From Nemertoderma westbladi (lineage: Eukaryota > Animalia > Xenacoelomorpha), in NCBI GenBank assembly GCA_032718475.1, contig JAUCBJ010004510.1:1-64000 (forward strand): 64,000 bases of DNA, given 5' to 3'. The notes below the pieces were generated by a model. That model did not search any database and was not told the origin of the DNA. It was given only the letters and a program-made list of their open reading frames with translations. The position numbers were made by a program, and so were the translations under genes. Positions 3,337 to 56,975 of the stretch are shown here, one piece after another (the first letter of the stretch is position 1; every line of letters begins with the position of its first letter).

Positions 3337-3813
3337 ATGGTGAACTTCTGAAAAAAAATTAATTGGCAAAGATCAGCCACCGTAAATACAATATCATTAA
3401 GTTTGGGGGAGGGGCAAGTCACTGAATTACGTCAATCAATACATGGATAGGTGCAGTTGTGCGTCTAACTTTAATTAATAATAGTTTTGGTGGGCAATTT
3501 GAATAATATGAATAAAGTTGCTAAGCTGCATTTCATCATTACACACATTATATCGGTACAATGACAAGTCCCCAAAAGGTGCCACCCTGCTCCATAGTGC
3601 GTGAAATTCAAATGATTGAAAGACCTGTAATTTGTACTGGAAAGGGTGGCAGATCAGATCTGCCACCTATATTTTGGCGGTAAATTCAAATCTGTTTTAA
3701 CATTGTATACATGAATAGAGTAAGACTAATAATGTAATTCATTGAATCAGAATAAATTATTTCTTATCGGTTTAACTCACTCATTCGTTACTGTTGTTGT
3801 TTTATCTATCTTG

Positions 3814-4167
3814 GGACTTCGAGCAGCACGTGAACAACTAAGCTGAATGGTTAACTAGTCTTGGACTTCGAGCAGCACGTGAACAACTAAGCTGACTGGT
3901 TAATTAGTCTGGGACTTCGAGCAGCACGTGAACAACTAAGCTGACTGGTTAACTAGTCTTGGACTTCGAGCAGCACGTGAACAACTAAGCTGAATGGTTA
4001 ACTAGTCTTGGACTTCGAGCAGCACGTGAACAACTAAGCTGAATGGTTAACTAGTCTTGGACTTCGAGCAGCACGTGAACAACTAAGCTGAATGGTTAAC
4101 TAGTCTTGGACTTCGAGCAGCACGTGAACAACTAAGCATACTGGTTAACTAGTCTGGGACTTCGAGC
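3814..4167 (+). repeat. 49-bp tandem repeat (about 7 copies; 2 inverted copies at about 4450-4550)
   Basis: Unit GGACTTCGAGCAGCACGTGAACAACTAAGCTGAATGGTTAACTAGTCTT, each containing CACGTG. Confidence 0.9.
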
Positions 4168-4655
4168 AAAATTGAAAATTGAGGAGGGTGGGGGCGGGGG
4201 GGGGGGGGGGTCGGGTGATTTGGCTTAACTTCTATTTCAGTAAAATCTAAAGAACATTTATTATTTGCTTGTATCAGTTATAATTACATCAGAACATTAT
4301 AATTATAACAATTATACACTTATACCTAGTATATTAATAGTAGATTTCAAGTAGATAGATGATAGAAAGGCACAGTGAATTGATATATTTTTGGCGGTTG
4401 ATTCAAATTACAGAATTATCATATTTCCATTACAAACTGTACACAGTCCCAAACTAGTTAACCAGACAGCTTAGTTGTTCACGTGCTGCTCGAAGTCCCA
4501 GACTAGTTAACCAGTCAGCTTAGTTGATCACGTGCTGCTCGAAGTCCCAGAATAGATAAAACAACAACAATAACGGATGAGTGAGTTAAACCGATAAGAA
4601 ATAATTTATTCTGATTCAATGAATTACATTTAGTCTTACTCTATTCATGTATTCA

Positions 4656-8219: not shown

Positions 8220-8440
8220 ATGACATATTCTTACAAAGATTATTTTGATTCTTCCAAATTTGTCATTTTGGCAACTGGCGCTCTGTTCTTTTACATAATA
8301 TATGGATACGTTCAAGAGTTAATATTCCAACAGGATGAATTCCACTTACATGGATGGTATTTAACACTGGTGCAGTTTTGTTTCTATAGTTGTTTTGCAC
8401 TTTCGTTAAAGTTTAGCGGCTTTTCAAAAGGAGAACGCAG
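8220..8440 (+). CDS. SLC35B3: PAPS transporter 2, coding exon 1
   Basis: FFYIIYGYVQELIF...GWYLTLVQF matches PAPST2; donor CGCAG|GTAGGT (phase 2). The start codon could lie in an unseen upstream exon. Confidence 0.85.
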
Positions 8441-9091: not shown

Positions 9092-9246
9092 GATTCCTCT
9101 ATCCGATTACATAATCCTAGCCGGTTTCACTCTCACAACAATGGGGTGCAGCAACACGTCAGTGGGGTACCTTAATTATCCAACCCAGGTTATATTCAAG
9201 TCGTGTAAACTCATTCCGGTAATGATCGGAGGTGCACTCATTCAAG
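9092..9246 (+). CDS. SLC35B3: PAPS transporter 2, exon 2 (155 bp)
   Basis: AG|G ATT CCT; translates RIPLSDY...TMGCSNTSVGYLNYPTQVIFKSCKLIPVMIGGALIQG; donor GTTCGT. Confidence 0.92.
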
Positions 9247-9757: not shown

Positions 9758-9865
9758 GAAAGCGTTACACTCCGGTTGATGTAGCCGCCGTACTCTCGAT
9801 GACTATAGGAATTATATTTTTCATTCTCGCTGACAATTCTGTTCAATCGGAATTTAATCCAAAGG
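9758..9865 (+). CDS. SLC35B3: PAPS transporter 2, exon 3 (108 bp)
   Basis: GKRYTPVDVAAVLSMTIGIIFFILADNSVQSEFNPKG; TAG acceptor, GTTAGT donor, frame-consistent. Confidence 0.9.
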
Positions 9866-10263: not shown

Positions 10264-10361
10264 GTGTTATTTTGATATCAACGGCCTTAGCAAGTGATGC
10301 ACTTATCGGAAATTTTCAAGAAAAGTCAATGAAAAGATATGTGGCTCAAAATACTGAAGTT
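10264..10361 (+). CDS. SLC35B3: PAPS transporter 2, exon 4 (98 bp)
   Basis: GVILISTALASDALIGNFQEKSMKRYVAQNTEV; CAG acceptor, GTTAGT donor (phase 0). Confidence 0.9.
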
Positions 10362-10735
10362 GTTAGTTTTATAGTTTAATATATAATTATAATTTATTAT
10401 TTTATAATTAAATTATTAAGAATAATGGAAATTTCCCGGTATCACATTTAGGTTAGGCAATCACTTTTGGTTTGTAATACAAGTGTAATAAGTATAATAA
10501 TATAAGAAGTTAAAATTGAATGACATCTGAATATGAAAGCTGGACATTTGTGTCGTTGCGTCATTACATTGTCAATATGACAGAGCAGACAGTTGGCGGT
10601 TGTAGCAAATAATTCAATGCGGATTAACTATTTAATGGCTTAATATACATTTGCAAATAACAGCTGTTTACTCGCAAAAATAAAACTGTAACCTGTTGTA
10701 TTGACTTTATTTATTATTTTGGTTCAAATAACCTA

Positions 10736-13700
10736 CCTTATTAACTCTTACCTTTTCTAATGCAGGTACTCTACAGCCCTTATTAACTCTTACCTTTTCT
10801 AACGCAGGTACTCTACAGCCCTTATTAACTCTTACCTTTTCTAACGCAGGTACTCTACAGCCCTTATTAACTCTTACCTTTTCTAACGCAGGTACTCCAC
10901 AGCCCGTATTAACTCTTACCTTTTCTAACGCAGGTACTCTACAGCCCTTATTAACTCTTACCTTTTCTAACGCAGGTACTCTACAGCCCTTATTAACTCT
11001 TACCTTTTCTAACGCAGGTACTCTACAGCCCTTATTAACTCTTACCTTTTCTAACGCAGGTACTCCACAACCCTTATTAACTCTTACCTTTTCTAACGCA
11101 GGTACTCTACAGCCCTTATTAACTCTTACCTTTTCTAACGCAGGTACTCTACAGCCCTTATTAACTCTTACCTTTTCTATCGCAGGTACTCTACAGCCCT
11201 TATTAACTCTTACCTTTTCTAACGCAGGTACTCTACAGTCCTTATTAACTCTTACCTTTTCTAACGCAGGTACTCTACAGCCCTTATTAACTCTTACCTT
11301 TTCTAACGCAGGTACTCTGCAGCCCTTATTAACTCTTACCTTTTCTATCGCAGGTACTCTACAGCCCTTATTAACTCTTACCTTTTCTAACGCAGGTACT
11401 CTACAGCCCTTATTAACTCTTACCTTTTCTAACGCAGGTACTCTACAGCCCTTATTAACTCTTACCTTTTCTAACGCAGGTAGGTACTCCACAGCCCTTA
11501 TTAACTCTTGCCTTTTCTAACGCAGGTACTCTACAGCCCTTATTAACTCTTGCCTTTTCTAACGCAGGTACTCCACAGCCCTTATTAACTCTTACCTTTT
11601 CTAACGCAGGTACTCTACAGCCCTTATTAACTCTTGCCTTTTCTAACGCAGGTACTCCACAGCCCTTATTAACTCTTACCTTTTCTAACGCAGGTACTCT
11701 ACAGCCCTTATTAACTCTTACCTTTTCTAACGCAGGTACTCTACAGCCCTTATTAACTCTTACCTTTTCTAACGCAGGTACTCTACAGCCCTTATTAACT
11801 CTTACCTTTTCTAACGCAGGTACTCTACAGCCCTTATTAACTCTTACCTTTTCTAACGCAGGTACTCTACAGCCCTTATTAACTCTTACCTTTTCTAACA
11901 CAGGTACTCTACAGCCCTTATTAACTCTTGCCTTTTCTAACGCAGGTACTCTACAGCCCTTATTAACTCCTACCTTTTCTAACGCAGGTACTCCACAGCC
12001 CTTATTAACTCTTGCCTTTTCTAACGCAGGTACTCTACAGCCCTTATTAACTCTTACCTTTTCTAACACAGGTACTCTACAGCCCTTATTAACTCTTGCC
12101 TTTTCTAACGCAGGTACTCTACAGCCCTTATTAACTCCTACCTTTTCTAACGCAGGTACTCCACAGCCCTTATTAACTCTTACCTTTTCTAACGCAGGTA
12201 CTCTACAGCCCTTATTAACTCTTACCTTTTCTAACACAGGTACTCTACAGCCCTTATTAACTCTTGCCTTTTCTAACGCAGGTACTCTACAGCCCTTATT
12301 AACTCCTACCTTTTCTAACGCAGGTACTCCACAGCCCTTATTAACTCTTGCCTTTTCTAACGCAGGTACTCTACAGCCCTTATTAACTCTTACCTTTTCT
12401 AACGCAGGTACTCCACAACCCTTATTAACTCTTACCTTTTCTAACGCAGGTACTCTACAGCCCTTATTAACTCTTACCTTTTCTAACGCAGGTACTCTAC
12501 AGCCCTTATTAACTCTTACCTTTTCTATCGCAGGTACTCTACAGCCCTTATTAACTCTTACCTTTTCTAACGCAGGTACTCTACAGCCCTTATTAACTCT
12601 TACCTTTTCTAACGCAGGTACTCTACAGCCCTTATTAACTCTTACCTTTTCTAACGCAGGTAGGTACTCTACAGCCCTTATTAACTCTTGCCTTTTCTAA
12701 CGCAGGTACTCTACAGCCCTTATTAACTCTTACCTTTTCTAACGCAGGTACTCCACAGCCCTTATTAACTCTTACCTTTTCTAACGCAGGTACTCTACAG
12801 CCCTTATTAACTCTTACCTTTTCTAACGCAGGTACTCTACAGCCCTTATTAACTCTTACCTTTTCTAACGCAGGTACTCTACAGCCCTTATTAACTCTTA
12901 CCTTTTCTAACGCAGGTACTCTACAGCCCTTATTAACTCTTACCTTTTCTAACGCAGGTACTCTACAGCCCTTATTAACTCTTACCTTTTCTAACGCAGG
13001 TACTCCACAGCCCTTATTAACTCTTACCTTTTCTAACGCAGGTACTCTACAGCCCTTATTAACTCTTACCTTTTCTATCGCAGGTACTCTACAGCCCTTA
13101 TTAACTCTTACCTTTTCTAACGCAGGTACTCTACAGTAGTGTTGAGAACTGAATCAATTTTGACTAATTTCAGTTACAGTTACAGTTTCAGTATTCAAAG
13201 TTTTGCATTTCAGTTACAGTTGCAGTTTCAGTATTCAAAGTTTTGCATTTCAGTTACAGTTACAGTTTCAGTATTACAAAGTGTAACATTTCAGTAACAG
13301 TTACAGTTTCAGTTTTACAAAATTGAGCATGTCAGTTTCAGTTATAGATTCAATATATATGATCTCACGTAGTAAGCAGTCATCTGAAACTAAAAATGAG
13401 GCACTTTAATATATTACTGTAATATACGCTAATAATAATGTTCATTACGAAACGTCCTCTTTCTAGAGCTAATAGGTAGTTGTTGTAGGAAAGTTGGACC
13501 CACTCTATGGTAATATTTTGTAACCAATATACTGATAGTATGTAATGAAAGTGGCACGTCACAAGATCACACTAAGGCACCCACATTTTACTGTACATCT
13601 TGTTTCAGTGCTTGTACACTTATTGTTATCATTTATTGTTTTGGTTATAAAGCCATGGTACTGAATCCTGCTCATTTTCCTTAATTCGTAATTTGTTTTA

Positions 13701-16700
13701 GTAATCATATATTTATTGTTTTGGTTAGACCCACCTCGATAAGCTGCTCCTTTCACTTTTAAGTTTAATTTTGTAATTTATAATGGTAAACTTGATCAAA
13801 ATTTAATTTCCAGTGTGCCTCTAGTGTGATTGTGATATTAATAGTACCGGTAAAAACATTAATAATTAATAATGTAAAATCCGTTAATATCCCTCTACCA
13901 TTAGGCCTAACTTTTCTTTGTTTATCTAAAACATTTACATTTAATATGAAGCCAAAGTGGTGATAAGGCTGATAGGTGATAGTCTAATAGTTGAGACAGA
14001 TAAACATAGACTTTATGCTACTGTAGATCTTCGTTCACTACTTGACTCGCCAAATAAATCACATTTGAGCTAAGTGGACAATGGGTCTTTGATTTTATAT
14101 TGTGTAATATTATGGTTTTGTTCAGAAGTGGAAAAAACGAGATTGTTTTTTTTATAACAATGTTTTAAAAATGATACCTATGGTAACCACTGTTATTCAT
14201 TTATTAAACTATACTCTATACTTTATTACAATACTGTTTTAAATGCTCATTCATGTTAATTGTGTGATTGAGAACTGAATCGGATTTTGTTAATTTCAGT
14301 TTCAGTTTCAGTTACAGTATTCAAAATACGTAATTACAGTTTCAGTTACAGTTACAGTATTCAAAGTTCGCAATTACAGTTACAGTTATAGTTACAGTAT
14401 CAAAAAAATCATCAAAACCATTCAGTTACAGTTGCAGTTACAGTATAATTACAGTTACAGTTCTCAACACTACTCTACAGCCCTTATTAACTCTTACCTT
14501 TTCTAACGCAGGTACTCTACAGCCCTTATTAACTCTTACCTTTTCTAACGCAGGTAGGTACTCTACAGCCCTTATTAACTCTTGCCTTTTCTAACGCAGG
14601 TACTCTACAGCCCTTATTAACTCTTACCTTTTCTAACGCAGGTACTCCACAGCCCTTATTAACTCTTACCTTTTCTAACGCAGGTACTCTACAGCCCTTA
14701 TTAACTCTTACCTTTTCTAACGCAGGTACTCTACAGCCCTTATTAACTCTTACCTTTTCTAACGCAGGTACTCTACAGCCCTTATTAACTCTTACCTTTT
14801 CTATCGCAGGTACTCTACAGCCCTTATTAACTCTTACCTTTTCTAACGCAGGTACTCTACAGCCCTTATTAACTCTTACCTTTTCTAACGCAGGTACTCT
14901 ACAGCCCTTATTAACTCTTACCTTTTCTAACGCAGGTAGGTACTCTACAGCCCTTATTAACTCTTGCCTTTTCTAACGCAGGTACTCTACAGCCCTTATT
15001 AACTCTTACCTTTTCTAACGCAGGTACTCCACAGCCCTTATTAACTCTTACCTTTTCTAACGCAGGTACTCTACAGCCCTTATTAACTCTTACCTTTTCT
15101 AACGCAGGTACTCTACAGCCCTTATTAACTCTTACCTTTTCTAACGCAGGTACTCTACAGCCCTTATTAACTCTTACCTTTTCTAACGCAGGTACTCTAC
15201 AGCCCTTATTAACTCTTACCTTTTCTAACGCAGGTACTCTACAGCCCTTATTAACTCTTACCTTTTCTAACGCAGGTACTCCACAGCCCTTATTAACTCT
15301 TACCTTTTCTAACGCAGGTACTCTACAGCCCTTATTAACTCTTACCTTTTCTAACGCAGGTACTCTACAGCCCTTATTAACTCTTACCTTTTCTAACGCA
15401 GGTACTCTACAGCCCTTATTAACTCTTGCCTTTTCTAACGCAGGTACTCTACAGCCCTTATTAACTCTTACCTTTTCTAACGCAGGTACTCTACAGCCCT
15501 TATTAACTATTGCCTTTTCTAACGCAGGTACTCTACAGCCCTTATTAACTCTTACCTTTTCTAACGCAGGTACTCTACAGCCCTTATTAACTCTTACCTT
15601 TTCTACGCAGGTACTCTACAGCCCTTATTAACTCTTACCTTTTCTAACGCAGGTACTCTACAGCCCTTATTAACTCTTACCTTTTCTAACGCAGGTACTC
15701 TACAGCCCTTATTAACTCTTACCTTTTCTAACGCAGGTACTCTACAGCCCTTATTAACTCTTACCTTTTCTAACGCAGGTACTCTACAGCCCTTATTAAC
15801 TCTTACCTTTTCTAACGCAGGTACTCTACAGCCCTTATTAACTCTTACCTTTTCTAACGCAGGTACTCTACAGCCCTTATTAACTCTTACCTTTTCTAAC
15901 GCAGGTACTCTACAGCCCTTATTAACTCTTACCTTTTCTAACGCAGGTACTCTACAGCCCTTATTAACTCTTACCTTTTCTAACGCAGGTACTCTACAGC
16001 CCTTATTAACTCTTACCTTTTCTAACGCAGGTACTCTACAGCCCTTATTAACTCTTACCTTTTCTAACGCAGGTACTCTACAGCCCTTATTAACTCTTAC
16101 CTTTTCTAACGCAGGTACTCTACAGCCCTTATTAACTCTTACCTTTTCTAACGCAGGTACTCTACAGCCCTTATTAACTCTTACCTTTTCTAACGCAGGT
16201 ACTCTACAGCCCTTATTAACTCTTACCTTTTCTAACGCAGGTACTCTACAGCCCTTATTAACTCTTACCTTTCTAACGCAGGTACTCTACAGCCCTTATT
16301 AACTCTTGCCTTTTCTAACGCAGGTACTCTATAGCCCTTATTAACTCTTGCCTTTTCTAACGCAGGTACTCTACAGCCCTTATTAACTCTTACCTTTTCT
16401 AACGCAGGTACTCTACAGCCCTTATTAACTCTTACCTTTTCTAACGCAGGTACTCTACAGCCCTTATTAACTCTTACCTTTTCTAACGCAGGTACTCTAC
16501 AGCCCTTATTAACTCTTACCTTTTCTAACGCAGGTACGCTACAGCCCTTATTAACTCTTACCTTTTCTAATGCAGGTACTCTACAGCCCTTATTAACTCT
16601 TACCTTTTCTAACGCAGGTACTCTACAGCCCTTATTAACTCTTACCTTTTCTAACGCAGGTACTCTACAGCCCTTATTAACTCTTACCTTTTCTAACGCA

Positions 16701-16965
16701 GGTACTCTACAGCCCTTATTAACTCTTACCTTTTCTAACGCAGGTACTCTACAGCCCTTATTAACTCTTACCTTTTCTAACGCAGGTACTCTACAGCCCT
16801 TATTAACTCTTACCTTTTCTAACGCAGGTACTCTACAGCCCTTATTAACTCTTACCTTTTCTAACGCAGGTACTCTACAGCCCTTATTAACTCTTACCTT
16901 TTCTAACGCAGGTACTCTACAGCCCTTATTAACTCTTACCTTTTCTAATGCAGGTACTCTACAGC
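10736..16965 (+). repeat. 42-bp minisatellite made of the exon-5 splice acceptor (about 116 copies), interrupted by a hAT element
   Basis: Unit CCCTTATTAACTCTTACCTTTTCTAACGCAG|GTACTCTACAG. First AG at 10764-10765; last AG at 16952-16953, which leads into exon 5. The copy number comes from span arithmetic after removing the insertion and small indels. Confidence 0.95.
13137..14472. mobile_element. Non-autonomous hAT-type DNA transposon (1336 bp)
   Basis: 15-bp TIR TAGTGTTGAGAACTG / CAGTTCTCAACACTA; 8-bp TSD CTCTACAG (13129-13136, 14473-14480); subterminal CAGTTA/CAGTTT repeats; no transposase ORF. Confidence 0.88.
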
Positions 16966-17046
16966 TACGGAATAGCTTTTCTATATTTATTGGTTATTCT
17001 TATACTTAATGGGGAACTATTGGAGTCATTCTCCTATTTTGGAAAG
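16954..17046 (+). CDS. SLC35B3: PAPS transporter 2, exon 5 (93 bp)
   Basis: VLYSYGIAFLYLLVILILNGELLESFSYFGK continues exon 4 in frame; donor AAG|GTAATT. Confidence 0.9.
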
Positions 17047-17271
17047 GTAATTTTGTATAATTATATATTTGAAATAATTATTAATAAAATTATTTGTTAT
17101 TAATAATTATGAAACGTCACAGTTGTAAATATTCTCTGAGTAAAAAACCGGCTTGGGTCCGCCGGCTTCAATCAATTAGAATTATTTATAATACGGTTAA
17201 AACTTCCTTCGATAAAATTGATTTCTAGATTTCTCAAACCCGTATCAATGATATCTGGTGCCGCCGACATA

Positions 17272-18441
17272 ACCTTTATCTATTACAGCGACCCTTTAGG
17301 AACTACGGTCTCACCTTTATCTATTACAACGACCCTTTAGGAACTACGGTCTCACATTTATCTATTACAGCGACCCTTTAGGAACTACAGTCTCACCTTT
17401 ATCTATTACACCGACCCTTTAGGAACTACAGTGTCACCTTTATCTATTACAGCGACCCTTTAGGAACTACGGTCTCACCTTTATCTATTACAGCGACCCT
17501 TTAGGAACTACGGTCTCACCTTTATCTATTACAGCGACCGACCCTTTAGGAACTACGGTCTCACCTTTATCTATTACAGCGACCCTTTAGGAACTACGGT
17601 CTCACCTTTATCTATTACAGCGACCGACCCTTTAGGAACTACGGTCTCACCTTTATCTATTACAGCGACCCTTTAGGAACTACGGTCTCACCTATATCTA
17701 TTACAGCGACCCTTTAGGAACTACGGTCTCACCTTTATCTATTACAGCGACCCTTTAGGAACTACGGTCTCACCTTTATCTATTACAGCGACCCTTTAGG
17801 AACTACGGTCTCACCTTTATCTAATACAGCGACCCTTTAGGAACTACGGTCTCACCTTTATCTATTACAGCGACCCTTTAGGAACTACGGTCTCACCTTT
17901 ATCTATTACAGCGACCCTTTAGGAACTACGGGTCTCACCTTTATCTATTACAGCGACCCTTTAGGAACTACTGTCTCACCTTTATCTATTACAGCGACCC
18001 TTTAGGAACTACGGTATCACCTTTATCTATTACAGCGACCCTTTAGGAACTACGGTCTCACCTTTATCTATTACAGCGACCCTTTAGGAACTACGGTCTC
18101 ACCTTTATCTATTACAGCGACCGACCCTTTAGGAACTACGGTCTCACCTTTATCTATTACAGCGACCCTTTAGGAACTACGGTCTCACCTATATCTATTA
18201 CAGCGACCCTTTAGGAACTACGGTCTCACCTTTATCTATTACAGCGACCCTTTAGGAACTACGGTCTCACCTTTATCTATTACAGCGACCCTTTAGGAAC
18301 TACGGTCTCACCTTTATCTAATACAGCGACCCTTTAGGAACTACGGTCTCACCTTTATCTATTACAGCGACCCTTTAGGAACTACGGTCTCACATTTATC
18401 TATTACAGCGACCCTTTAGGAACTACGGTCTCACCTTTATC
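17272..18441 (+). repeat. 41-bp minisatellite made of the exon-6 splice acceptor (about 28 copies)
   Basis: Unit ACCTTTATCTATTACAG|CGACCCTTTAGGAACTACGGTCTC. First AG at 17287-17288, last at 18407-18408. Confidence 0.95.
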
Positions 18442-18590
18442 TTCAGTATTACCGGCTACATTGGTGTTAACTTCGTTCTCAGTATTGTCAGCAACTACGG
18501 CGCGCTATTGGCTGTATCCGTGACGACAATAAGGAAGGTGGTTACCATTCTCTTATCGTTTATTATGTTTACAAAACCATTCACCTTACA
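18409..18590 (+). CDS. SLC35B3: PAPS transporter 2, exon 6 (182 bp)
   Basis: RPFRNYGLTFIFSITGYIGVNFVLSIVSNYGALLAVSVTTIRKVVTILLSFIMFTKPFTLQ; donor GTGAGT. Confidence 0.9.
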
Positions 18591-19321: not shown

Positions 19322-19612
19322 GTGGCTGAGCTGGAACGGAACCGCCTCCGCTTTGCAGGACATTGCTTTCGCCGTGAAGACCAGCCAGTGCATAATCTTG
19401 TACTTTGGCAGCCTCATGGAGTGAATAAGCATGGTGGACAGCCCATGACTTTCTTGAGACGCATCTTAAAGGACACTGGCCTTGAAGATACGGATGATCT
19501 AGCAAATGTCATGGGTGATAGGGAGTTGTGGCGGCGCAATTTTGTCGACAAGCCGGCACAGCATTCTTAATATATATGTAATATATATAATGCAGCTGCA
19601 ATGCAGCATGCC
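19322..19612 (+). mobile_element. 3' fragment of an RTE-like LINE
   Basis: RLRFAGHCFRRE...LVLWQP is a typical RTE ORF2 C-terminus; near-identical sequence at 60194-60363 (+) and 63865-64000 (-). Confidence 0.8.
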
Positions 19613-20115
19613 GTTACTGTTTACAAACACCGTAAAGACGGTTTATTAACATCTATCTAAGTACCGGTGTCACAGGCGAAAATGCTCCCCCCCCCCCCCC
19701 CCCCCCCCCCCAGAGCATTTTCACCTCAGATTTCGATAGTGGTGGAAACTATATGAAGTCATTCTCGTAACTACGTCGCGATTTCTCTTTCTCGGTTTTC
19801 TCCAAGTACTCGAGTGGAATGCCGGTCCTTCCGGGAATCCCTCCGCTCAGTACGAAACGTCCTATAAGCCTCGATGACCTCCAGTTTAAAAATACCTGGT
19901 GACTTAGAAAGGATATCGGGGGTTATTGTCCTCTCCCCGACAAGATTTAGGGCGAGTGTTGAGGATGATGAAAGATCTAATCCCAGCATTCTTTTAATAA
20001 AAGTCGTCTTATCCCATATAATAATTTAATTTCATTATACACCTTATAATGACGACACCAACAATCTCACAAACTCGGTTGTTTACTTTATATAAAGTTT
20101 TTAATTAATTTGTAG

Positions 20116-20362
20116 ATATATATGGTCCGGCAGCATTGTTATGTTTGGAATACTTCTCAGTGTTTATTCGAAGAATAGATTGGCATTCAGTCGCTTCCTT
20201 AATCGCTGCTATACAACTTCAATACGCACTAATTGCTGCATTCTATCTGTAATGGCGATTAATTTACGAGGAATTTGTGTTCGGTTAACTTCACAATTAC
20301 AACAGGAATTTACTTTAAGATATAAACAGTCTCCTATTGGCGGCACTGAATTCGTGGTATAA
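20116..20362 (+). CDS. SLC35B3: PAPS transporter 2, last exon (total CDS 1104 nt, 367 aa)
   Basis: TGTAG|A TAT ATA TGG gives QYIWSGSIVMFGILLSVYSKN..., stop TAA at 20360-20362. Confidence 0.88.
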
Positions 20363-20954
20363 TATTTTATTTTTAATTATATCTAAATACATTAATATTA
20401 TTTTATTAAATTTCCCTATAGGCCTAAATGCGACCAGACTGGAGAGCTAAGTTAATATTATTGTAACCGCAGTGTATTTGAACCGTCCCAATAATATTTA
20501 AGTGCAAATTATGTGTCCGCTAACTGTGTGCAATATTTTACCAATGCTAAAAGGGGTTTTTTTTAATTAGCACTTGACCTCAACGCAAATTAGCCTTTTA
20601 TGAAGCCGAATATACTTATAGTCCCAAGTGCAAAATTCATCCCTCTCCAGGGGAAAATGAAAATCGACCCAAATAACAGATGTTTACTCTCAAAAATAAA
20701 ACTGTAACCTGTTATATTGACTTTGGTTTATTGTTTTGGTTGGAATAACGTGTCGTTGCTGATTTGCTTGGCCACCCTCCCCGTGTTACCTAGAGCAGTA
20801 AAGTGTACAATTACTTCTCTATAGAATATACAGTGTTGTACATTAATTGATTTATACAGTGCAGTCCATATTCAATGTGATATGTTTCATCTAGAGTTAC
20901 AATCAAGTAAATGTTATTAATATTTCGGAATATAACATTATAAATTTCACCATC

Positions 20955-22963: not shown

Positions 22964-25900
22964 CTAGTCATCCAGTTGGCATAGTAACGCAACACCTCGT
23001 TTTATCCAATGTTCCACGGGTCGATCGGTTTTTAGAAGCATTTGTAAGACAAAGTTTGTTGAATGTCCCGTTGTACTCAATGTCCCCTTACGTTCGCTGG
23101 TTTTATAACAGGGACAGGCGTACTCATTCGCTGTGACTAGTTCGTCTTTCTTTACCGGTTTGATCCAGATAATGGGTACGGGATCGAATAGAACCTTGGG
23201 ATGGGACTCAGCAAGCAGTCCGACCTTCCGATCCCATCGACAACCGTCGAGGAATAATCCGTTCACATAGACACCGTCCTCGGGGAAGTGGTCCGATGTC
23301 TCTTGGGGCAGCACCTTGAAGGAGTAGGTGAGTTTATCGATAGGAATCACGTATTTCCTCGCGTAGTTCTGAAGGGCGCCTGTGAGGAAAGCTTGGGTGA
23401 AGAAGAACCCGCTGATCCAGAATACTTTAGGTTTATTTTCCTCGAACCACCGCTGGAGAAAAGCGAGTCTTACCAACAAGTCCGATATGAAACTCCCCAA
23501 TGGTTTCAGTGATGGGTAAGATCTTTTCGCCCACAACGCTGGCAGTTTTCCCACCATGAGGCTGTAAGACAATTGCTCCAATTCCGCATTCATAACGACC
23601 AAACCTTTGATTGCTTTCAGGAGGTTCTGCAAACTCGATCGTATACTCGTCAATAGATTATTGAATCGTTCCATTTCTTGTACCAGAACAGTATTCATGC
23701 TCTCGTTGTATCGCACCGGGTACTTATTCTGCGCGATCTCGAGGTTGTAGTTATCGGGTAGTTTCGCGAGGATGTCGTTGGCGATGTTTGTGAGAAGTTG
23801 ATCTGTTTCACTCTGCTTGCCACCGCCCCCACTTTGCCCTTGAGTCACCAAAATGTTATCCAGAAGTTGTTTTGTTTCTTGCAACTCTCGTGAGATACTG
23901 ACGTTGTCATGCATACCGAACACTTCCGGTTCCTGATTAGTTGGCAGCTCTTTTATAAACTCGACATATTCTTCGTAGGTCTCTCGCTTCGGGGCATAGT
24001 ACAGACCGCTGGGAGAGAATTTATACTTGGGGTCGGTGACCAGTGAGGGGTTGTAAAAGTCCGCCAGTATTGTGGTGAGTGTCCTTCTGTCCCAGTCGTC
24101 TGTCACCCTACCACCGTAGTTACATTCTCCGGTGAGGTAGGTTATCGCTTCGTAAGGCAACTCTTCGTAATTGTTAATAAACAACTGAAGTTGCCTCACT
24201 GAAATTCGCAAATCGCTTTCATTGAATCCGTATGCGATATTCCAACCCAAAGGACCGAATTTTCGTCTTTCCTGCACTAAGGCGTGGAAGAAACAAAGGC
24301 CGTACATTAATTTCTCAAACTCAAATTCTTTCCCGACGCATCCAGTAAAAAACGACTCATCAGATAAAGGATCACTCAGGTAGGACTGCAGGAGATTTTG
24401 ACGTAGACCAGTGGGCGGTTCATTTGTCATTTTCACGCTATTTTGTAGAACTGTAACAGGGAACTTGGGACTTGGATAGCTGGTCAACCACAAACGAAAC
24501 TCTGAGTTCACCTCGTCGGGGTTGAAAGCTGCGCATATTCGTTCCAGACTAGTCATCCACGATGTTGCTAGATGGCAGTTTTGCAAGCAAACCCAGGATC
24601 CATCTTGTTTAGCCTTTTCTATAAGTTTCGAAGCAACCGGACCTTGACCTTGGCCTAAAGATATTGCGTTGAATTTATCGCCGGAAAATCCTTTATCCCC
24701 CGCAAACTTAAGAAGAGCAGCCATGGGGTCAGCTCCCGGACTGAGGACGAAAACCAAAGGAATAACAGCACTGGAATCGACATAACTTTTAGCCAAATCG
24801 AATGGAGGTGGTCGAACAAATTTACTCCCTAACTTTTCCATGACGAAGTTAATTACTCTTGGAAGGATTTTATCGGGCCTTATAACCCTCAATACAACCA
24901 GTTTCTGGAATTCCTGCAACTTTCCGGCCCATGGATTTGGTAATTGCGCTTTGTGCGGCTCTTTCTGCTCATAGAAATGTTTCCACGGTGGGATATCGTC
25001 ACATAAGCTGTCCCGAATACCTTTAAAGCTTGGCAAATCATCTAGTCGACACAATTCATCCCAACTCTTATCTGACAACCACGAATTATCAGGATTAGCT
25101 AGTTTATTCTCCAAACCTACCCCACCTGTGAGGAAAAATTTCAATTCAGCAGGGTCCATTTCTTTTTTATGGAGGAGTAGATTGGAACACAAAACGAATG
25201 AAAAAATTAACTTATCCTTTTCAAATAATGACCTGCATACATTGCTATAAAGATTGTAGGTAAAATGATCCGACAGATAGCGCAGCCTCTTATCCAGAAT
25301 TTTACTTTTGTTACTGTCATGGATGCTGTTGATGAAGAGATTAATGAACCAGGTTAACGCGTATTGGTACATAGGATCAATGTTTCCAAGATCGGCAATT
25401 GAGAAGAATAGGATGCTCGAATGAATAGCTACAGGTTTATAACCCTGTCGAGCAATCTCAATCTTTTTCTGAGTTTCCTCAGCGACCTTCTGTTTTTTTG
25501 AGATATCATCACTAAGAATCTTAGAGGAGTCAAGAATTTCGATTGCAGATTCGTCCTCTAATATATTTCCTTCCTTACTCAATGTTTCAAGGATTTTATC
25601 TTCAATCTCTTTCAATGTTTTCTTGTTCGTAGCTGATTGGATAATAAGACTCTGTCTGTCATCTTCAAGCTCAGGACGTTCTTTTGCAACAACTATCCCC
25701 AAAAGCTGATCTTGCAAGCCTTCTGGCGTTATCATAAAATTAAGTAAAGTAACTTTCACTGCCGTTTCAGGTAAGTAGTGGGGGTTTCTTAATTTTGTTG
25801 TGATATAAAACCTGAAATCTTGACTGTATTCTATAATGTTTTCTCCAAGTCGAATACACTCTACACCGCTTTGCTTAAACGTCTGTTTTAGAAGAAGTGG

Positions 25901-28900
25901 CTCCAATGAGGGATCGAGATCTTCTCCAATATTTTCCAATAACAGGGGGTTTCCAAATTGTATGCAGTTCTCCAAATTCCTCATATAATCAGGGTCAGTA
26001 AACTTTATAACCGATAATTGCTTGTCCTTCTCCATATTTTTGACCCATTTGTTTGCCTGGCCTTGGGGGTCAATCATCAATGGCCATCTTCTGGTGTTAT
26101 CCACAATAACGCCATTGTCTATTGAGAAGTTGTCTGTGGGCAAACCGGCAATATTCCAAGCGCGAATTTTAATAGGTTCTCCCAGAGTGTTACTCAGAGA
26201 ATATCCTTCTGAACAAGGTATCTTCCTTTTGACGCATTCCTTAGCCCAAGTTTCAGAACAATCATTCCTATAACTTGCTGTAAAGGCACCAAGATAAGCA
26301 ATAACTGCCGATGATATTAAAACATCACCCGGTAGATTATCATATGTTCTTTGCAGGTTTGCTGCCGCTGTGGTCCATCTATCCTTTTCACCTCCCAAAC
26401 CTCCAATCAATTTCTCAGCACGAATCAACTTTTTACCACACAAATCCACTTGAAATTCCAATTCTTCCTTTTTCTTCGTTGTCTCGGCAAGGTCTCTGTG
26501 TAATGCGGCCAATCTCTCCTTGATGGCTGCTAGTTCAGCACGTTTTGCATTGAGTTGTGACGTGGCCTGCGATAGCATCAGTTCCGCCTCAGCCAATTTT
26601 AATTTCTTAGGAGCCACAACTTTTGCAACACGATCGTAGATCTCCATAGCTCTGACCCATCTACAAAGACCTTCTGCAGCACTGCTAGCCTTAGCCACCT
26701 TTTCAGGCACGAATTCTGTGTTTGATATGTATTCGGTTCGAATCTTCTTCATAACAGGAATGGGAATGTTATCCTTATCATATGTTCTTAACGAAGCTAA
26801 AAAATTCATGTCACCAAGTAACTTCTTACTTGGGCCCCAGTAATCTTCAATCTTTTTGCCTGAACCAGAGGGGTCAGGAATACGGTCTGGCTTTATCTCT
26901 TGCATCACACATACGGATTCCATGACCAGTTTCACACCATGAGGGGGATTTTTCATGGATTTCACTATCGATATATCAGCTGGTTTGAGAGTATCCAAGG
27001 CAGCCAGAGCAGCTTCTAGTGCCGGTATTGCTTCTGCAAGATCTGCTTCACATTCACTCTTCAGTGCCTGGGCTTCGGCTGCCTGTTCATTTACAATTGC
27101 TTCCTCTTTAGCAACAAGTTGACTCTTTGCTTCCACTTCAACTGACTCAGTTTCTATCACAACAAACATTTTGGCGTTTTCATCTGCTGTAATAACTAAC
27201 TGTGGTTTTAATTCTTCTAATTCAACCTGCATTTCAGCAACTTGAGTTGATGCAAACGCCAATTTTTCCAATCCAACAATGTACCTTCGTTTCGCTTTCA
27301 TCACTTCCTCCTGTTTCAGATGAAGTAGCTTTTTAAACGATCCAATTAGTTCGAGGTAGGATGTTGGAGTGACATAGTTGTGGCGCCCAAGTTCGTTCAG
27401 AAACTTTTCCGAGAGATCAGAGGCGCTGGTGTGGAAATATTTACACAATGTGACAATCTCCCCCCTTTCTTCATCTTCAATTTCGACATTTTCCAAAAAC
27501 TTATTAGCTACACGTTCCAAAGCATCCACAGGCCATGCTTGAAACCAGTCAATTGTGCAACAATTAATTAATGATGGAAATTGTCGCATTCTATTGCGAA
27601 ATGCATCACCAATAGGCGAGAAAGCAATTACAATATGCAACTTTTCCTTAACTTGATTGACAAAGAAATTAAATAATGCTAAAGGGGAGAATTCAGCATT
27701 TTTGTCGCCAGCTGCTAAGAGTGCAGCTGGGCGGACAGTTTCTAAAACATCCTGTTTTTCATCTGGGGCATAAAGATTAGGAACTTCACCAGTATTCAGA
27801 AGATTGTCAATGTCTTCGAGAAAACTCTCGTATTTTATTTGTGTGTCAGTTACCAATAAAATTGTCGGTTTCCCAACCGCGCCAGCCTGCTTCAAGACGA
27901 CTTTCAGATCTTCCCTCCACTCCACTGGACCATACTGTTTGGTTATCTCTGGTTGAAAAATGTTGAAACCCGACATAAACCCAGCCAATCGTGTCAGGGA
28001 TTGGCGCCCGCTGCCTCCAACCCCAACCAATAATGCATTTCCTCCAGGTTGCTTCAAAATTCGACTAATTCGTGACAAATGTTCCAGAACATACCTAAAA
28101 ATAACTAAATTCATTTTAGCTTTGTTCACTTGGTTGTATTCATCCAATTGATGTTCTGAAATTTTGTTGAATTCTTCGATCTCTACAATCTCTTCATAAA
28201 CACGCTCGTCAATATCACCATCTGGATTCATATAATCTCCAAACATCAATGACCTCATGTCATCTTCAACCACTGACCGTCGTTCACCTCTTAAATTTTC
28301 AAAAACAGCATCGAATGATTCTTTGAAGTGGTCCTTGACGAGACTTTTTACCAGGTTGAAGAGCCAAGTTCTATCATTATCATCAATAAGCCTATCATAA
28401 AACACTCGGTAGACCTCATGAACCCAAAGTTTTGTGTAGGTCCGTTTATTTTCTACAGACTGCTTCTTAATTAGAGTCACTCCATTGATTACCCTAGAAA
28501 AGTCTCTGAGATTGAAAACGTAATGAGATTTTGCAGGTGTTGGAAGGAGGTTACTCGTGGCTGCCTTGTAAACATCCATTGTGGCTGCAACTATAATTTG
28601 GCCAACCAAGTAAAAATCTGGGCTAAATTCTTCTTTTTTGAAATATAGTGTGCAAATATTTGTGAATATTTTAACCATGGCGTCATCACTGAATGGATTC
28701 ATGGCGATTATATTAAAATGGCGCATAAATCTAGGTGTGACAGCATTTTTCCCACCTGCTGGAGGTCCCATTGCCGCAACGAAAAGTAAATCAACGAGAG
28801 ATAATTTTGATGTTTCTTTAAGATCATACCAATTTTTGTGGTCGAAATATTGGCGCAACAACTCAATAGGTGGTTGAGCACCATAGATTTCTTTAGCTGG

Positions 28901-31900
28901 CATATTCATATCGTCCACAAATATAATGGACTTCTTACCAACTGGTGGTCCATAAATTCCCTTACGTCTTTTATCCAACTTGGACATAATTAAGTTCTGA
29001 ACTTGATTAGCGCTTGTTTGTGCGGAAAAGTTAACAAATAGAGGAACAAAAGTGTCTTTGTCGAGATGATTCATAAGTTTGTCTTTAACATAGACACTCT
29101 TGCCAGTTCCCGTTGGGCCTACAAATAACGCAGCCCTATTGTTTTCCACACACTGACTCAAGAGATATGTGTACCGTGCTGTATCAACAGTTGGCACAAT
29201 TATTTCATTTAGTTTCATTTTTGGGCTGGCCACCTCAATTTTTTTGATTGTCTCATTCCAATGCACCCACCGTCCTCTGTTCTTAGCCTCAAACATGTAA
29301 TGGTAAACTTGCCCAGTATCGGGGAATGGTACATCAATTTTACCAACCTCAGAAGGAATTTGAGGTAAATCTTTATTTTTGCCTTCAAAAATTTCACGAA
29401 GATATGCATCGAACTTTTCCATTCCATCACTGTCTGTTGTTGCGCCTACTGACCATGTTAAAGAGAAGAAAAATATTGACACCATCCAATTCTTAAGATA
29501 TTTGCTGCTACGATTGTCTTCATTAGCATGCTTGGACATTAGAATGTCGTAAAAGTACATGAGGGACCTCACAAGGTTGATAGAGCTTGTCTTAACAAGT
29601 TCTTTACATGTGGTTTTAATGAATCTAATACATGGATCCACAAGCCATTCAAACATCGCTCTTATCAATTTCTCATAATCCTTATTCATCACCTCAGGAA
29701 GTTCATGTAGCCAGGACTCAAATATCGGTCTCCATCCGAGGCTTTCTGGTTCCATGTAAATCATACCGCATCGACTTACAGTAGCCGGAGATGCCTGAGA
29801 AAGATCATCTGTCTCAAACATTAGCGACATGGCATTGGACATCTGAATAATCTCACCGGACATCAAACACAACTTCTTGTTATCATCCAACACTGTGTTC
29901 ATCGATTCAATCCACAGTGTATCTATGGGACCATCGAATACGACCCACTTTCTATCAGGCGTGTCGGTGGATGCAAACTCTCGGAATGTGTTCGCTACAA
30001 CTCCATCTGTCCACTCATGGGAGACCGGATCGAACTGACCAAACAGTTGGCCCATAGTGACTGCCTTGGGATTGACAATCCGATAAATGGCCTTATTTTC
30101 TTCCATTTGACCACGTTCATTTAGCTTTGCTAACATATTAGCTAGACATTGGATGACACATGTTTTTCCAGCAAACGGTTCACCAACCAACATGAAGCCA
30201 TGCCGTACAACCATCATTTCGTATGTTTGTATAAGTTGCTCCATAAAACTTGGAACAGGTTGCAGCTTCATCTCCGCACATGCTTCGCGGGCAGCTGTTA
30301 AAAATTCTCCATAATCAGGTTCAGGCATTACAACTCCGGGAAACAAATCAGAAATAATACCATTGAACAATGGAATATCGTGTGATAAAAATTTTGGCAG
30401 GTTGACGTCAGTTATAGACCTCAGTAAAAGTATATCTTCATTTTGTTCAGGAAATGTTAATTTCAGATTTCCAGCAGCTATTAAAACAGCTTTGACCGCT
30501 CGCATTCCATAATCATAATGAAATTGGCTAGAAAGTTGCTCGGAGCATAGCCTATATGTCATGACAATTTTAACAGCCAAATTTCTAGCATCAAGAAAAC
30601 CGCATGAATATAGAGATATCTCAGCAATCAAAGCATAGTCTGGAACCATCATCGCTACTGTGCGAAACAGGACTTTAAGATTGTCTGGCAGTTCAGAACG
30701 TCCTGCATATCCTGGATTCATTGTAATAGCAACAAAACAATTAGGATTCAAATCAATTTCCGTTCCCTCAAACATGAAACGATCGAGACCATCTTGAACA
30801 GCCCTCTGAATTGCCAAAATTTGCTGGGCAACAACAGACAATACCTCCAGTTCAATGCGATTGAATTCATCAAAGCAAGCCCAGGCGCCGGCTGAAGCCA
30901 AACCTTTAAAAAATTTACTCATGGCCAAATAGTCCAAACCGTCACTACAGTTGAACACCACACATTGGACAGCTAATGCTTTGGCTAAATCTTTAGTTGT
31001 TTCAGTTTTCCCTGTGCCCGCTGGTCCTTCTGGAGCACCTCCTAAATTAAGGTTAAATGCACCAATCAAAGTGCGATAACATCTATCAGTGAGCGGTGTG
31101 ATAACTAGCCTAGGTGAATTCCCAAGGTATTCGTAAGCATACTTACAATTGGCATTGATAATTTTAACTCGGCAATTATCATTCTCCCAATAGTATCGCA
31201 ACTGTGACAACCACTTGAAATCATTTTCAGAAGTCACCCCAGCTTTAGTAATAGATTCAACTACATCCCTAGCATGAACATCAATAGTTACCAACGCCCC
31301 TAATGTTATTCGAGTCTGTTTCTCCAATTTACCTCTTACCATTTCAACAATATCTCCCAGTTGTTTCATCAACGCATCATAAAAGGGACCCAAGGCGTTG
31401 TCATTGATAGCTTGATGGACGTCCTGTGTCCAGAAAATTTGAGATACACACAAGACAACCTGACCTGGCCATTCTCTGGTCCACTGCGGTCTACTAGGAG
31501 TTAATAGATATGCATCTATCGATTTCTCAATAACATCACGGACTGACTGGAGCATGACGTCTTGAACTTGTAGCAGCCACTTTTCAACAGCACCCCGAGC
31601 TTCGGATGTGGAAATTACAGTTGACAACTTCACCTTTTCGCCTTCACTGCTAAACATTGCAGTGATATCTAAGCTTGGTGTAAATTCGAGCTTGGCTACA
31701 CCCTCAAAACATTTCTTCAGATGGGGCTGAACTCTTGTGGGATCTTTAGTTTCAGACAGAATTTCTAACATTTCATCGTTTGAGAGAAAGAAAAACCGAG
31801 GAAAGAATAGTCGTTTCTTCTCAAGGTAAGCATTAAGCCCCTTAAGAATTTTCTCAAGAAGTTCGTTCGCATCTTGTAGTCTTTCCAATAATCCAGCGAG

Positions 31901-34891: not shown

Positions 34892-35252
34892 TATAATTAT
34901 TTTACACTCAAAGTATAAAAATATAATGAGTTTTTAGTTTAAAGAATTTATAGGTGGATATATTCGTTGTATGCAATAACAATTAAGTTTTAAACCAATA
35001 CAATTTGTAAATAATTCCAGCGCAATTTTAATAAAATTATTCAAATAAATTTAAAATAAAACCACATTATTCTATTTCGTAAGGTCATCAAAAGGTTATT
35101 TTTAATTAGCAAAATACAACTTAGTGATCTAAACACAAAATTCGATAATAAATATGTTAATTCTCTTAGCTATAGTATGGCGATTTATATTAAACACCAT
35201 GTTAATTGTTAACAATTGCTAATTTTTTAGCTAGTGTATTGTATTTGTCGTA

Positions 35253-36645: not shown

Positions 36646-37420
36646 TTGCTGCATTGTCTGCCAACCCTGCTGCATTTCAGCCAACCCTGCTGCATTTCAG
36701 CCAACCCTGCTGCATTGTCTGCCAACCCTGCAGCATTGTCTGCCAACCCTGCTGCATTGTCTACCAACCCTCTAGCATTGTCTGCCAACCCTGCTGCATT
36801 GTCTGCCAACCCTGCAGCATTGTCAACCAACCCTGCTGCATTGTCTGCCAACCCTGTTGCATTGTCAACCAACCCTGCTGCATTGTCTGCCAACCCTGTT
36901 GCATTGTCAACCAACCCTGCTGCATTGTCTGCCAACCCTGCTGCATTGTATGTCAACCCTGATACATTGTCTGTCAACCCTGCTGCATTTTCAACCAACC
37001 CTGCTGCATTGTATGCCAACCCTGCTGCATTGTCAACTAACCCTGCTGCATTGTCTGCCAACCCTGCTGCATTGTCTGCCAACCCTGTGGCATTGTCTGC
37101 CAACCATGCTGCATTGTCTGCTTACCCGGCTGCATTGTCTACCAACCCTGCTGCATTGTCACCCAACCCTGCTGCATTGTCTGGCAACCCTGAGTCATTG
37201 TCTGTCAACCCTGCTGCATTGTCAACCAACCCTGCTGCATTGTATGCCAACCCTGCTGCATTGTCAACTAACCCTGCTGCATTGTCTGCCAACCCTGCTG
37301 CATTGTCTGCCAACCCTGTGGCATTGTCTGCCAACCATGCTGCATTGTCTGCCAACCCGGCTGCATTGTCTACCAACCCTGCTGCATTGTCAACCAACCC
37401 TGCTGCATTGTCAGCCAATC
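36646..37420. repeat. 21-bp minisatellite (about 37 copies)
   Basis: Unit CCAACCCTGCTGCATTGTCTG with variants; it generates the repetitive ORFs on both strands. Confidence 0.92.
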
Positions 37421-37581: not shown

Positions 37582-38235
37582 TCAAGGAATATTTAACAAG
37601 TTTGACTGTTCATACATATTCTGAGTTAGGATGTGGACTCTACTCATAGCGTCAACAATGTTGTCAAGTTGCTCCATAACATCACGCCTCTCACGATCGC
37701 CAAACAGATTATGGAACAACGTGGTGCGAGTCGGCAATGTCTTCAGAGCTAAGTAGACTGTCTGTCGCAGCATCCAAGAATGGTGTTTAGCCAACGATGA
37801 ATCGTAAGCATTTCTTACTATTTTTTGAGTGGAATCCCCCTCTGAGCTCGTGTTCAGCCCTTCAAATACCAAGGTAACGAAGTTGAGAGCTCGGTGTAAT
37901 ATGAGAAGTTGCCGAGATCCTGAGATTTTATCAGGCACATCGAAATCGATTAAATGTTCTTTTAACTCAAATTGTAACATCGCCCCAATAAACAGATAAT
38001 GTTCAGAGATATTCTTGTCATATAATTTCGCTTGTAAAGTTCCCATTTTACTTTTCAAGTCCGACGTAAGAAACGTAAAAACTGAACCCATGACATTGAA
38101 AAAGAGTAATATTTCATCCCAAATGTTTAGATACAAGGGGATTCTTACATCGTTATCGGGATTGCGGATGGATTCTTTGCAGTGCTCCAAGAGACGAATG
38201 ACACTAAAACAATCGTCATGATTCCCCATAGCCAT
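37582..38235 (-). CDS. GLTP-fold lipid transfer protein (CPTP/GLTPD-like), single coding exon
   Basis: MGSVFTFLTSDLKSK, SGSRQLLILHRALNF and AYDSSLAKHHSWMLRQ are GLTP/CPTP motifs. The first ATG is at 38235; the ORF track starts at a non-ATG codon. Confidence 0.82.
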   Translation of the reverse strand: MAMGNHDDCFSVIRLLEHCKESIRNPDNDVRIPLYLNIWDEILLFFNVMGSVFTFLTSDLKSKMGTLQAKLYDKNISEHYLFIGAMLQFELKEHLIDFDVPDKISGSRQLLILHRALNFVTLVFEGLNTSSEGDSTQKIVRNAYDSSLAKHHSWMLRQTVYLALKTLPTRTTLFHNLFGDRERRDVMEQLDNIVDAMSRVHILTQNMYEQSNLLNIP

Positions 38236-46112: not shown

Positions 46113-46157
46113 CTGCGGGAGATAAAGCATTAATTACGAATTAATCACGAATTATCA

Positions 46158-52826: not shown

Positions 52827-53273
52827 TTAATCGCATACGAATTTCATCATAAAATCGAAATCTCTGTAACTGACACGGCCATCCCCATCTCTGTCCACTT
52901 CGTCGAATACTTTACGAAGAGTCAACTCGGGGATATTCGGAGCGAATAAATTAATCGCGCGTTTCAAATCCGCCAACGTTATAAATCCTTTGCAATCCAC
53001 GTCGAAAGCATTAAATATTTGTCGTATGTTTACGTTATTGTCCTCGCTTTTGGCCCTAACATTTACTGCCGTAACGAATTGATTGGAGTTCAGCGTGTCT
53101 CTCGCCCCAACTTTTCGGAATGTTTCGTTCACTTCGTATTTAGAAGGTTTGTACCCGAATATTCGTAGCACGGCTACTTTAAAATCTTCGCGCGATAAAT
53201 ACGATTTATTCCCGCTATCCGCTTCATTGAATACTTTTAGTAACTCCTTCGTGGTAAATCGTAATGTTACCAT
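52827..53273 (-). CDS. EFCAB11: EF-hand calcium-binding domain protein 11-like, single exon, 148 aa
   Basis: YLSREDFKVAV..FGYKPSK, IFNAFDVDCKGFIT and EVDRDGDGRVSYRDF match EFCAB11 (recalled); first ATG at 53273. Confidence 0.8.
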   Translation of the reverse strand: MVTLRFTTKELLKVFNEADSGNKSYLSREDFKVAVLRIFGYKPSKYEVNETFRKVGARDTLNSNQFVTAVNVRAKSEDNNVNIRQIFNAFDVDCKGFITLADLKRAINLFAPNIPELTLRKVFDEVDRDGDGRVSYRDFDFMMKFVCD

Positions 53274-56732: not shown

Positions 56733-56975
56733 AGGGGGGGGGGGGGGGGACTGGACGCAATAAAAATTCATCCTTCTCCAGGGGAAATTCGACGCAAATA
56801 ACAGCTGAATACTCTCAAAAATAAAACTGTAACCTGTTATATTGTATTTAGCTTATTGTTTTGGTTAAAATAACGTGCCACTTTAACCTGCTCCTTTCCC
56901 TAAATCGAGAATTTAACATTGAGGCGGGATATTAATTCGCCAAGGCGGGTTTTGCTTCCAGTTTCCTCCCCTGTC
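56733..56975. repeat. Dispersed repeat family (other copies or fragments at about 10660-10731, 20625-20790, 36117-36242)
   Basis: Shared AAAAATAAAACTGTAACCTGTT...TTTTGGTT block and CTGGACGC / TCTCCAGGGGAAA blocks. Confidence 0.6.

Follow-up and report, generated by a model that had tools for sequence, protein, structure and literature searches.

The stretch of Nemertoderma westbladi DNA analysed here (64,000 nucleotides, called the window below) carries on its forward strand a gene of seven exons, with introns that run from GT to AG throughout and a joined open reading frame of 367 amino acids. The coding part of exon 1, from the ATG, occupies positions 8220–8440 and is followed by exon 2 (9092–9246), exon 3 (9758–9865), exon 4 (10264–10361), exon 5 (16954–17046; 93 nt), exon 6 (18409–18590; 182 nt) and the coding part of exon 7 up to its TAA stop codon (20116–20362). 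The junctions of exons 1 to 4 with one another were placed from the sequence, not from reads. Five of the seven exons match the Pfam UAA domain (PF08449), three of them beyond the curated cut-off; the E-values are 3e-9 for exon 1, 6e-17 for exon 2 and 3e-14 for exon 6, exon 3 taken alone (3e-4) stays below the cut-off, exon 4 also has a Pfam match, and exon 5 by itself gives none in the profile search, although it aligns ungapped with its homologues. The best matches to exon 6 are named PAPST2 (three of its four homology matches bear the name PAPS transporter 2, and the fourth is without a name). The joined protein is 54% identical to Hydra PAPST2 in an ungapped alignment of residues 11–307, which takes in both of the junctions discussed below, and 51–56% identical to its homologues over about 297 amino acids. 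By its UAA domain and these best matches, the gene is most probably SLC35B3, encoding PAPST2, a transporter of the sulfate donor PAPS, and the initial annotation, which had named it so and had joined seven exons into a clean protein of 367 residues, is borne out, with every intron GT..AG. Intron 4 measures 6,592 nt and intron 5 measures 1,362 nt; the three array-free introns upstream are short, at 398–651 nt. The host genome appears to be intron-poor, the window containing an open frame of 3,989 codons whose product resembles a dynein heavy chain. The neighbouring XPD gene is 62% identical to that of Branchiostoma, and in a tree of XPD exon 1 built from 39 of 120 listed matches, with the unnamed top match omitted, the host lies on a long branch in an unsupported position.

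The 3′ splice site of intron 4 is embedded in a tandem array (array 1) of 116 acceptor units of 42 bp each at 10736–16965, every unit combining 30 bases of intron with the 12 that open exon 5. Its left part (10736–13136, forward strand) comprises 57 acceptor copies, each with a branch-point-like TTAAC, a pyrimidine tract, an AG, the 12 exon bases and an in-frame TAA; the right part (14473–16965, forward strand) comprises 59, the last of which, with its AG ending at 16953, is the one used. The TTAAC motif stands at position −22 in each unit, 72 of 114 units, counted from acceptor to acceptor, are one identical 42-mer, and the AG is kept in all 116 (the search pattern demanded an AG, and the spacing of the units indicates that none was skipped). 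The AG is directly followed by GT in this array only. In a few variant units a 4-bp slip has generated the 9-mer CAG|GTAGGT, which is also that of the real intron-1 donor; one lies at 11477–11485 on the forward strand and the others at 12660, 14554 and 14936. A coding role for the open reading frames within the repeats was considered and rejected: they do not follow the exon frame, and the exon frame meets a TAA in each array-1 unit. An 80-bp dispersed repeat without assigned strand (10654–10732) ends 3 bases 5′ of the array and has two further copies in the window, 88–90% identical; DNA cover is very deep over the one at 20670.

Array 1 is divided into its 57 and 59 acceptors by an element of 1,336 bp (13137–14472, no strand assigned) inserted into one of the units. 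The element has perfect terminal inverted repeats of 15 bp (2 matches against 0.16 expected), is flanked by an 8-bp target-site duplication (CTCTACAG) and occurs in one copy within the window. A target duplication of 8 bp we take to indicate the hAT superfamily, and by its termini and its duplication the insertion reads as a putative hAT-like MITE. A block of 14 variant units recurs on either side of it, a length that none of 1000 shuffles reached (maximum 8). A T variant is confined to units 1, 107 and 116, that is, to the first and last units and to 1 of the 114 inner ones. The history of array 1 appears to be one of ordinary minisatellite turnover, with a homogenisation that spares the edges.

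A second array (array 2; 17272–18442, forward strand) spans the 3′ splice site of intron 5 and consists of 28 units of 41 bp, each made of 7–17 intron bases and 24–34 exon bases and without sequence relation to the array-1 unit. A single 10-bp word marks both of its ends, serving as pyrimidine tract in the intron and as coding sequence in exon 6. Its units have a branch-point-like CTCAC at −17 and, in 26 of the 28 cases, an AG, one of the remaining two ending in AA and the other in AC. The junction here reads AG|CG, so that no unit (0 of 28) has a GT after its AG, and the only GT in array 2 scores 3/9 as a donor. The counts of 116 and 28 units in adjacent introns of one gene, reported in the initial annotation, are confirmed, the insertion in the larger array having been overlooked there; a further correction is that two units of array 2 have lost the AG.

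How these introns are spliced can be seen in assembled sequencing data. Six runs were consulted, none of them recorded as RNA; four contain this stretch, and two (X5 and X6) have almost none of its words. One of the four, X4, a single run from a single study with the label "DNA?", is read as RNA because the fraction of the stretch's words that it contains is 0.24, about 26% of the stretch being exon, and because no spliced joint occurs in the three DNA runs; its contigs lose rare forms. Over the compared region, 16912–17340, X4 has a single contig (475 nt, depth 2,330), which passes from the last 30 bases of exon 4 directly to 16954, includes the whole of exon 5 and continues across a GT..AG joint into the start of exon 6 and unique exon-6 sequence. 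Spare units are absent from it, and intron 5 is uncovered, with the reservation that rare forms can be lost from contigs. Further downstream, 18590 is joined to 20116 in an X4 contig, again GT..AG, and the sequence runs through the stop codon into the 3′ UTR, where RNA-like X4 contigs (20153–20900) extend the cover past exon 7 to at least 20900. Skipping of exon 5, which would stay in frame and leave 336 amino acids, is not seen in the X4 contigs. The main SLC35B3 mRNA is spliced normally, as this one contig displays; an untranscribed locus had been envisaged as an objection, and the contig, from a run inferred to be RNA, reads as a spliced transcript. Nonsense-mediated decay (NMD) would in any case hide mis-spliced forms.

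When the products of all acceptors are computed, the native protein of 367 amino acids arises only from the last acceptor of each array, as had been claimed beforehand, and the transcript contig agrees. None of the 115 acceptors further upstream in array 1 leads to the native product, and with 110 of them translation stops after codon 200; each of the 25 earlier AGs in array 2 likewise yields a non-native product, with a stop codon 67–1209 nt ahead of the last junction. Under the 50-nt rule, premature stops far enough before the last exon junction mark a transcript as a candidate target of NMD, and the products of the upstream array-2 acceptors are such candidates. Two AGs inside the exons were considered as well: use of the one that lies 11 nt into exon 5 would yield 208 amino acids, and use of the one 10 nt into exon 6 would yield 259.

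The use of the last AG had been presented as a paradox, since the first suitable AG after a branch point is normally favoured. The paradox is only apparent: every unit has its own branch-point-like motif, so that the AG in use, although last in the array, is the first to follow the motif of its own unit, and the real question is which acceptor module is recognised. The last module alone has a true donor at a normal exon length downstream (93 and 182 nt), which makes exon definition the simplest candidate mechanism. Each unit would be a complete 3′ site, pairing across the exon would pick the acceptor nearest to the next donor, and any earlier acceptor would give rise to a premature stop that is likely to be cleared by NMD. 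Among the three mechanisms raised in the initial annotation (exon definition from the downstream donor, recursive removal, and NMD control tuned by copy number) the first appears to be the best. Recursive removal is impossible in array 2, where no GT follows the AG. The AG|GT that it needs is there in array 1, but the donor re-formed behind exon 4 by the typical units is weak: in a simple match count it reaches 3/9, against 5/9 for the four variant units and 5/9 for the native donor, the six real SLC35B3 donors scoring 5–8/9. Compared with recursive splice sites and RS-exons, as far as they are described in the accessible part of PMC6224609, array 1 likewise has its AG directly followed by GT, yet 112 of its 116 units re-form no more than a weak donor, and array 2 re-forms none. 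Tandem duplication across an AG|GT had also been named as a route to intron gain. Array 1 has the AG|GT, but no intron has been gained: ahead of each array lies intron sequence outside the repeats, opened by a donor of its own, 374 bases before the array in intron 4 and 225 in intron 5, and it is these donors that X4 uses. Intron gain was rejected as an origin, and so was recursive splicing as a general account. The intron-gain model of Rogers, as outlined in PMC3087553, likewise involves tandem duplication across a splice signal, but it yields a new intron, and SLC35B3 has none.

Arrangements of this type have been described before, and the comparisons that follow rest on the accessible portions of the cited papers. 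The mirage minisatellites of amphioxus leave splicing undisturbed, vary in length and keep their boundary units outside homogenisation; their hosts include Adh3, the globins BflGb6 and BflGb9, troponin C and PGBD5 (PMC3087553, PMC3902484). The SLC35B3 arrays resemble them in that the units bridge exon and intron and include splice signals while the main mRNA is normal, and the unit length of 41–42 bp lies inside the 10–160 bp reported for mirages. As in BflGb6, the inner units of array 1 are homogenised and the edge units excluded (PMC3087553). What sets mirages apart is found here as well: boundary-spanning units, spare copies that are intronic and mostly retain the splice signal, and, in array 1, concerted evolution with exclusion of the edges. 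The copy numbers far exceed the 3–6 of BflGb6 (PMC3087553), and, unlike the amphioxus cases, the present ones comprise two acceptor-side arrays in adjacent introns, one of them with a TIR element inside, in an intron-poor host that is not an amphioxus. Human genes offer partial parallels. In CBS c.844_845ins68, a duplication of 52 intron and 16 exon bases has given the gene an additional 3′ splice site, and splicing removes the copy that lies upstream (PMC7490669); the end of the intron and the start of the exon are doubled as in SLC35B3, but there are two copies instead of 28–116 and no minisatellite. The 37-bp VNTR of F7 intron 7 and the minisatellites of 6-16, CBS intron 13, LMNB2 and PDGF lie on the donor side, with the nearest one to three sites in use (PMC1557585). 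These human junction VNTRs are polymorphic, and their identical pseudo-sites are mostly silent, the site nearest to the exon being used, as in SLC35B3, although they lie at donors and have about 5–26 copies (PMC1557585). A novel system of decoys, for which the initial annotation saw a candidate here, is not supported; the arrangement was on record already, both under the name of mirages (PMC3087553, PMC3902484) and in the form of human junction repeats (PMC1557585, PMC7490669). Searches of the open-licence literature turned up neither a mirage of comparable size nor any publication about this gene.

The reading that we favour, with a probability of roughly three in four, is that both arrays are neutral minisatellite expansions of the mirage type, tolerated since the acceptor nearest to the next donor wins. 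Each would have been born by a slippage or repair duplication of 41–42 bp across an acceptor; in array 2, the 10-bp word common to the pyrimidine tract and the exon interior may have seeded the slippage or may have been left by a later deletion. The arrays would then have grown by multi-unit slippage or unequal exchange, with homogenisation, and the TIR element would have been inserted afterwards. Arrays seeded inside exons would have been purged, leaving those that span junctions among the survivors. Points that weigh against the favoured reading are the shortness of the three array-free introns, the scarcity of introns in the genome and the four units whose donor, identical to that of intron 1, might be put to use. 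With either origin of array 2, the present acceptor of exon 6 would be a chimera whose branch-point-like motif derives from copied exon sequence.

The strongest competitor concerns the position of the arrays, and it is compatible with the favoured reading as regards splicing: this lineage may be prone to short tandem duplications at its splice acceptors, which would be mutational hot spots, the arrays being neutral and their position targeted, by microhomology of pyrimidine tracts, by insertion of repeats near intron ends or by a repair step coupled to splicing. Among the five large arrays of the window (period of at least 20 and TRF score of at least 400, picked among 40 rows), two span acceptors, none spans a donor and three span no known junction. 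Under a crude uniform null at the level of the window, the probability that two or more of five lie across a junction is 0.0005–0.002, a figure that is post hoc and ignores the purging of arrays seeded in exons. The excess over that null may reflect a bias towards acceptors, and the 10-bp microhomology at array 2 and the dispersed repeat that abuts array 1 speak for such targeting. Against it, the window was chosen after the fact, a survival filter could yield the same pattern, and the two arrays have no sequence or signature of birth in common. Moreover, an array of 5.6 kb that fills an intron of the neighbouring XPD gene stops 19 and 39 nt short of the splice sites and spares both, so that arrays here are not confined to junctions. 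On balance we consider targeting unlikely.

Two further readings assign a role to the repeats. In the more elaborate one, which we judge quite improbable, the array would have evolved a splicing switch of its own, in a lineage where acceptors are hot spots, the four slips producing 42-nt poison exons or recursive landing points and the length and variants of the array setting PAPST2 dosage in different individuals. The more general form, that inner acceptors or the four donor-bearing units act as poison micro-exons or recursive steps and that copy number tunes PAPST2 through NMD, appears very improbable. In its favour, CAG|GTAGGT, present in 4 of 116 units, is identical to the intron-1 donor and matches the U1 consensus at 8 of 9 positions; each variant unit could close an exon of 42 nt, with the protein stopping at 200 amino acids, and when placed after exon 4 it would re-form a donor equal in score to the native one. 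There are also precedents, within the accessible text of the reports: the length of the ABCA7 VNTR correlates with exon skipping and expression (PMC6660495), and nearby pseudo-donors find minor use in 6-16 and CBS intron 13 (PMC1557585). However, no X4 contig bears a unit (although rare forms can drop out), array 2 offers no GT after AG and no donor above 3/9, and typical array-1 units do no better than 3/9. The donor variants themselves are simple 4-bp slips, at least two of them copied along with a duplicated block, and both the insertion of a transposable element and apparently unequal array depths between samples have been tolerated.

These depths come from the DNA runs, of which X2 and X3 represent one sample and X1 another. 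Units of both arrays occur in the contigs of both samples at depths far above those of the flanks. In X1, the array-1 unit contig has a depth of 644 against 6.2 for the flank (about 100-fold) and the array-2 unit one of 75 (about 12–20-fold); in X3, the array-1 unit exceeds the flank about 20–30-fold. As evidence we took only the covered parts, X3 lacking cover on exon 5 and X1 on part of exon 6. A joint that goes back 41 bases is found in X2 and X3 contigs, and the unique left junction of array 1 in an X2 contig. Several differences at intron sites make X2 likely to represent another individual than the window; the window itself may derive from sample X1, in which case X1 gives no independent support. 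The ratio of array-1 to array-2 unit depth, which is roughly 8:1 for X1 and roughly 1:1 for X3 compared with 4:1 in the window, hints at length polymorphism of the arrays between samples, contig depth not being the same as copy number. An origin of the arrays in faulty assembly, or a great inflation of their length by it, is hardly credible: no listed contig spans either array and the lower of the unit depths would fit such inflation, but units, tandem joints and the left junction recur in DNA of two samples, the array-1 depth in X1 is about 100 times that of the flank, and structured blocks of variants, together with a TIR insertion bounded by a perfect target duplication, are unlikely products of an assembler. 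The repeats, whose artefactual nature had been named as a possibility at the outset, are genuine in kind, their lengths being those of the assembly.

The arrays of SLC35B3 represent a real, expressed and unusually large case of a known type, the mirage minisatellite, and are likely to be tolerated repeat expansions, not a control system. In this natural experiment, the spliceosome of an intron-poor animal is offered 116 complete and nearly identical 3′ splice sites and picks a single one, a choice that points to the donor downstream as the selecting element. The acceptor of exon 6, apparently built in part from copied exon sequence, illustrates how repeats at junctions can remodel splice signals. 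If it were true that copy number or the four donor-bearing units tune the expression of the gene, or that acceptors are hot spots of duplication throughout the genome, the import of the finding would be far greater.

Within the first array of SLC35B3, whose 42-bp units span the intron-4/exon-5 acceptor, the inserted TIR element (13137-14472) carries 14 TTTCAG and 17 TTACAG words on the strand of the gene, and therefore adds further acceptor-like motifs to the array region. The array is directly adjoined by one copy (10654-10732) of an 80-bp dispersed repeat that is present three times in the window; the other copies lie at 20670-20749, where cover in the DNA runs is very deep, and at 56794-56874. 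Intron 6 of the same gene contains an extremely high-copy dispersed element (19340-19613), as judged from depth in the DNA runs, which sums to more than one million, and two further copies occur in the window. At the C-terminus, the final ~60 residues of the 367-aa SLC35B3 protein, encoded at 20180-20362, do not align to the three homologues compared. This coding stretch is nevertheless unspliced in contigs of X4, a run taken to be RNA by inference, and its frame is open in the variants seen.

Tandem repetition is also found elsewhere in the window. Two 49-bp tandem arrays (3802-4168 and 4445-4559) appear to be inverted copies of one another, which suggests a putative foldback-type element. 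On the minus strand, subunits of 20-21 bp, organised into a higher-order structure, form a 5.6-kb array (46152-51723) that occupies nearly all of an XPD/ERCC2 intron. The array leaves 19 nt at the donor and 39 nt at the acceptor free of repeat, and the exons on either side follow each other without a gap when numbered against homologues. A small EF-hand-like open frame (52830-53327, minus strand) ends ~150 bases ahead of the XPD start codon (52678) on the same strand.

A single-exon GLTP-domain gene (37585-38235, minus strand; PF08718 match) is followed by 37 copies of a 21-bp tandem unit (36647-37418). Finally, one frame on the minus strand stays free of stops for 3,989 codons (22967-34933) and, judged by eye, presumably encodes an axonemal dynein heavy chain, a family that is intron-rich as a rule, and the locus reads like an intronless gene of this type.
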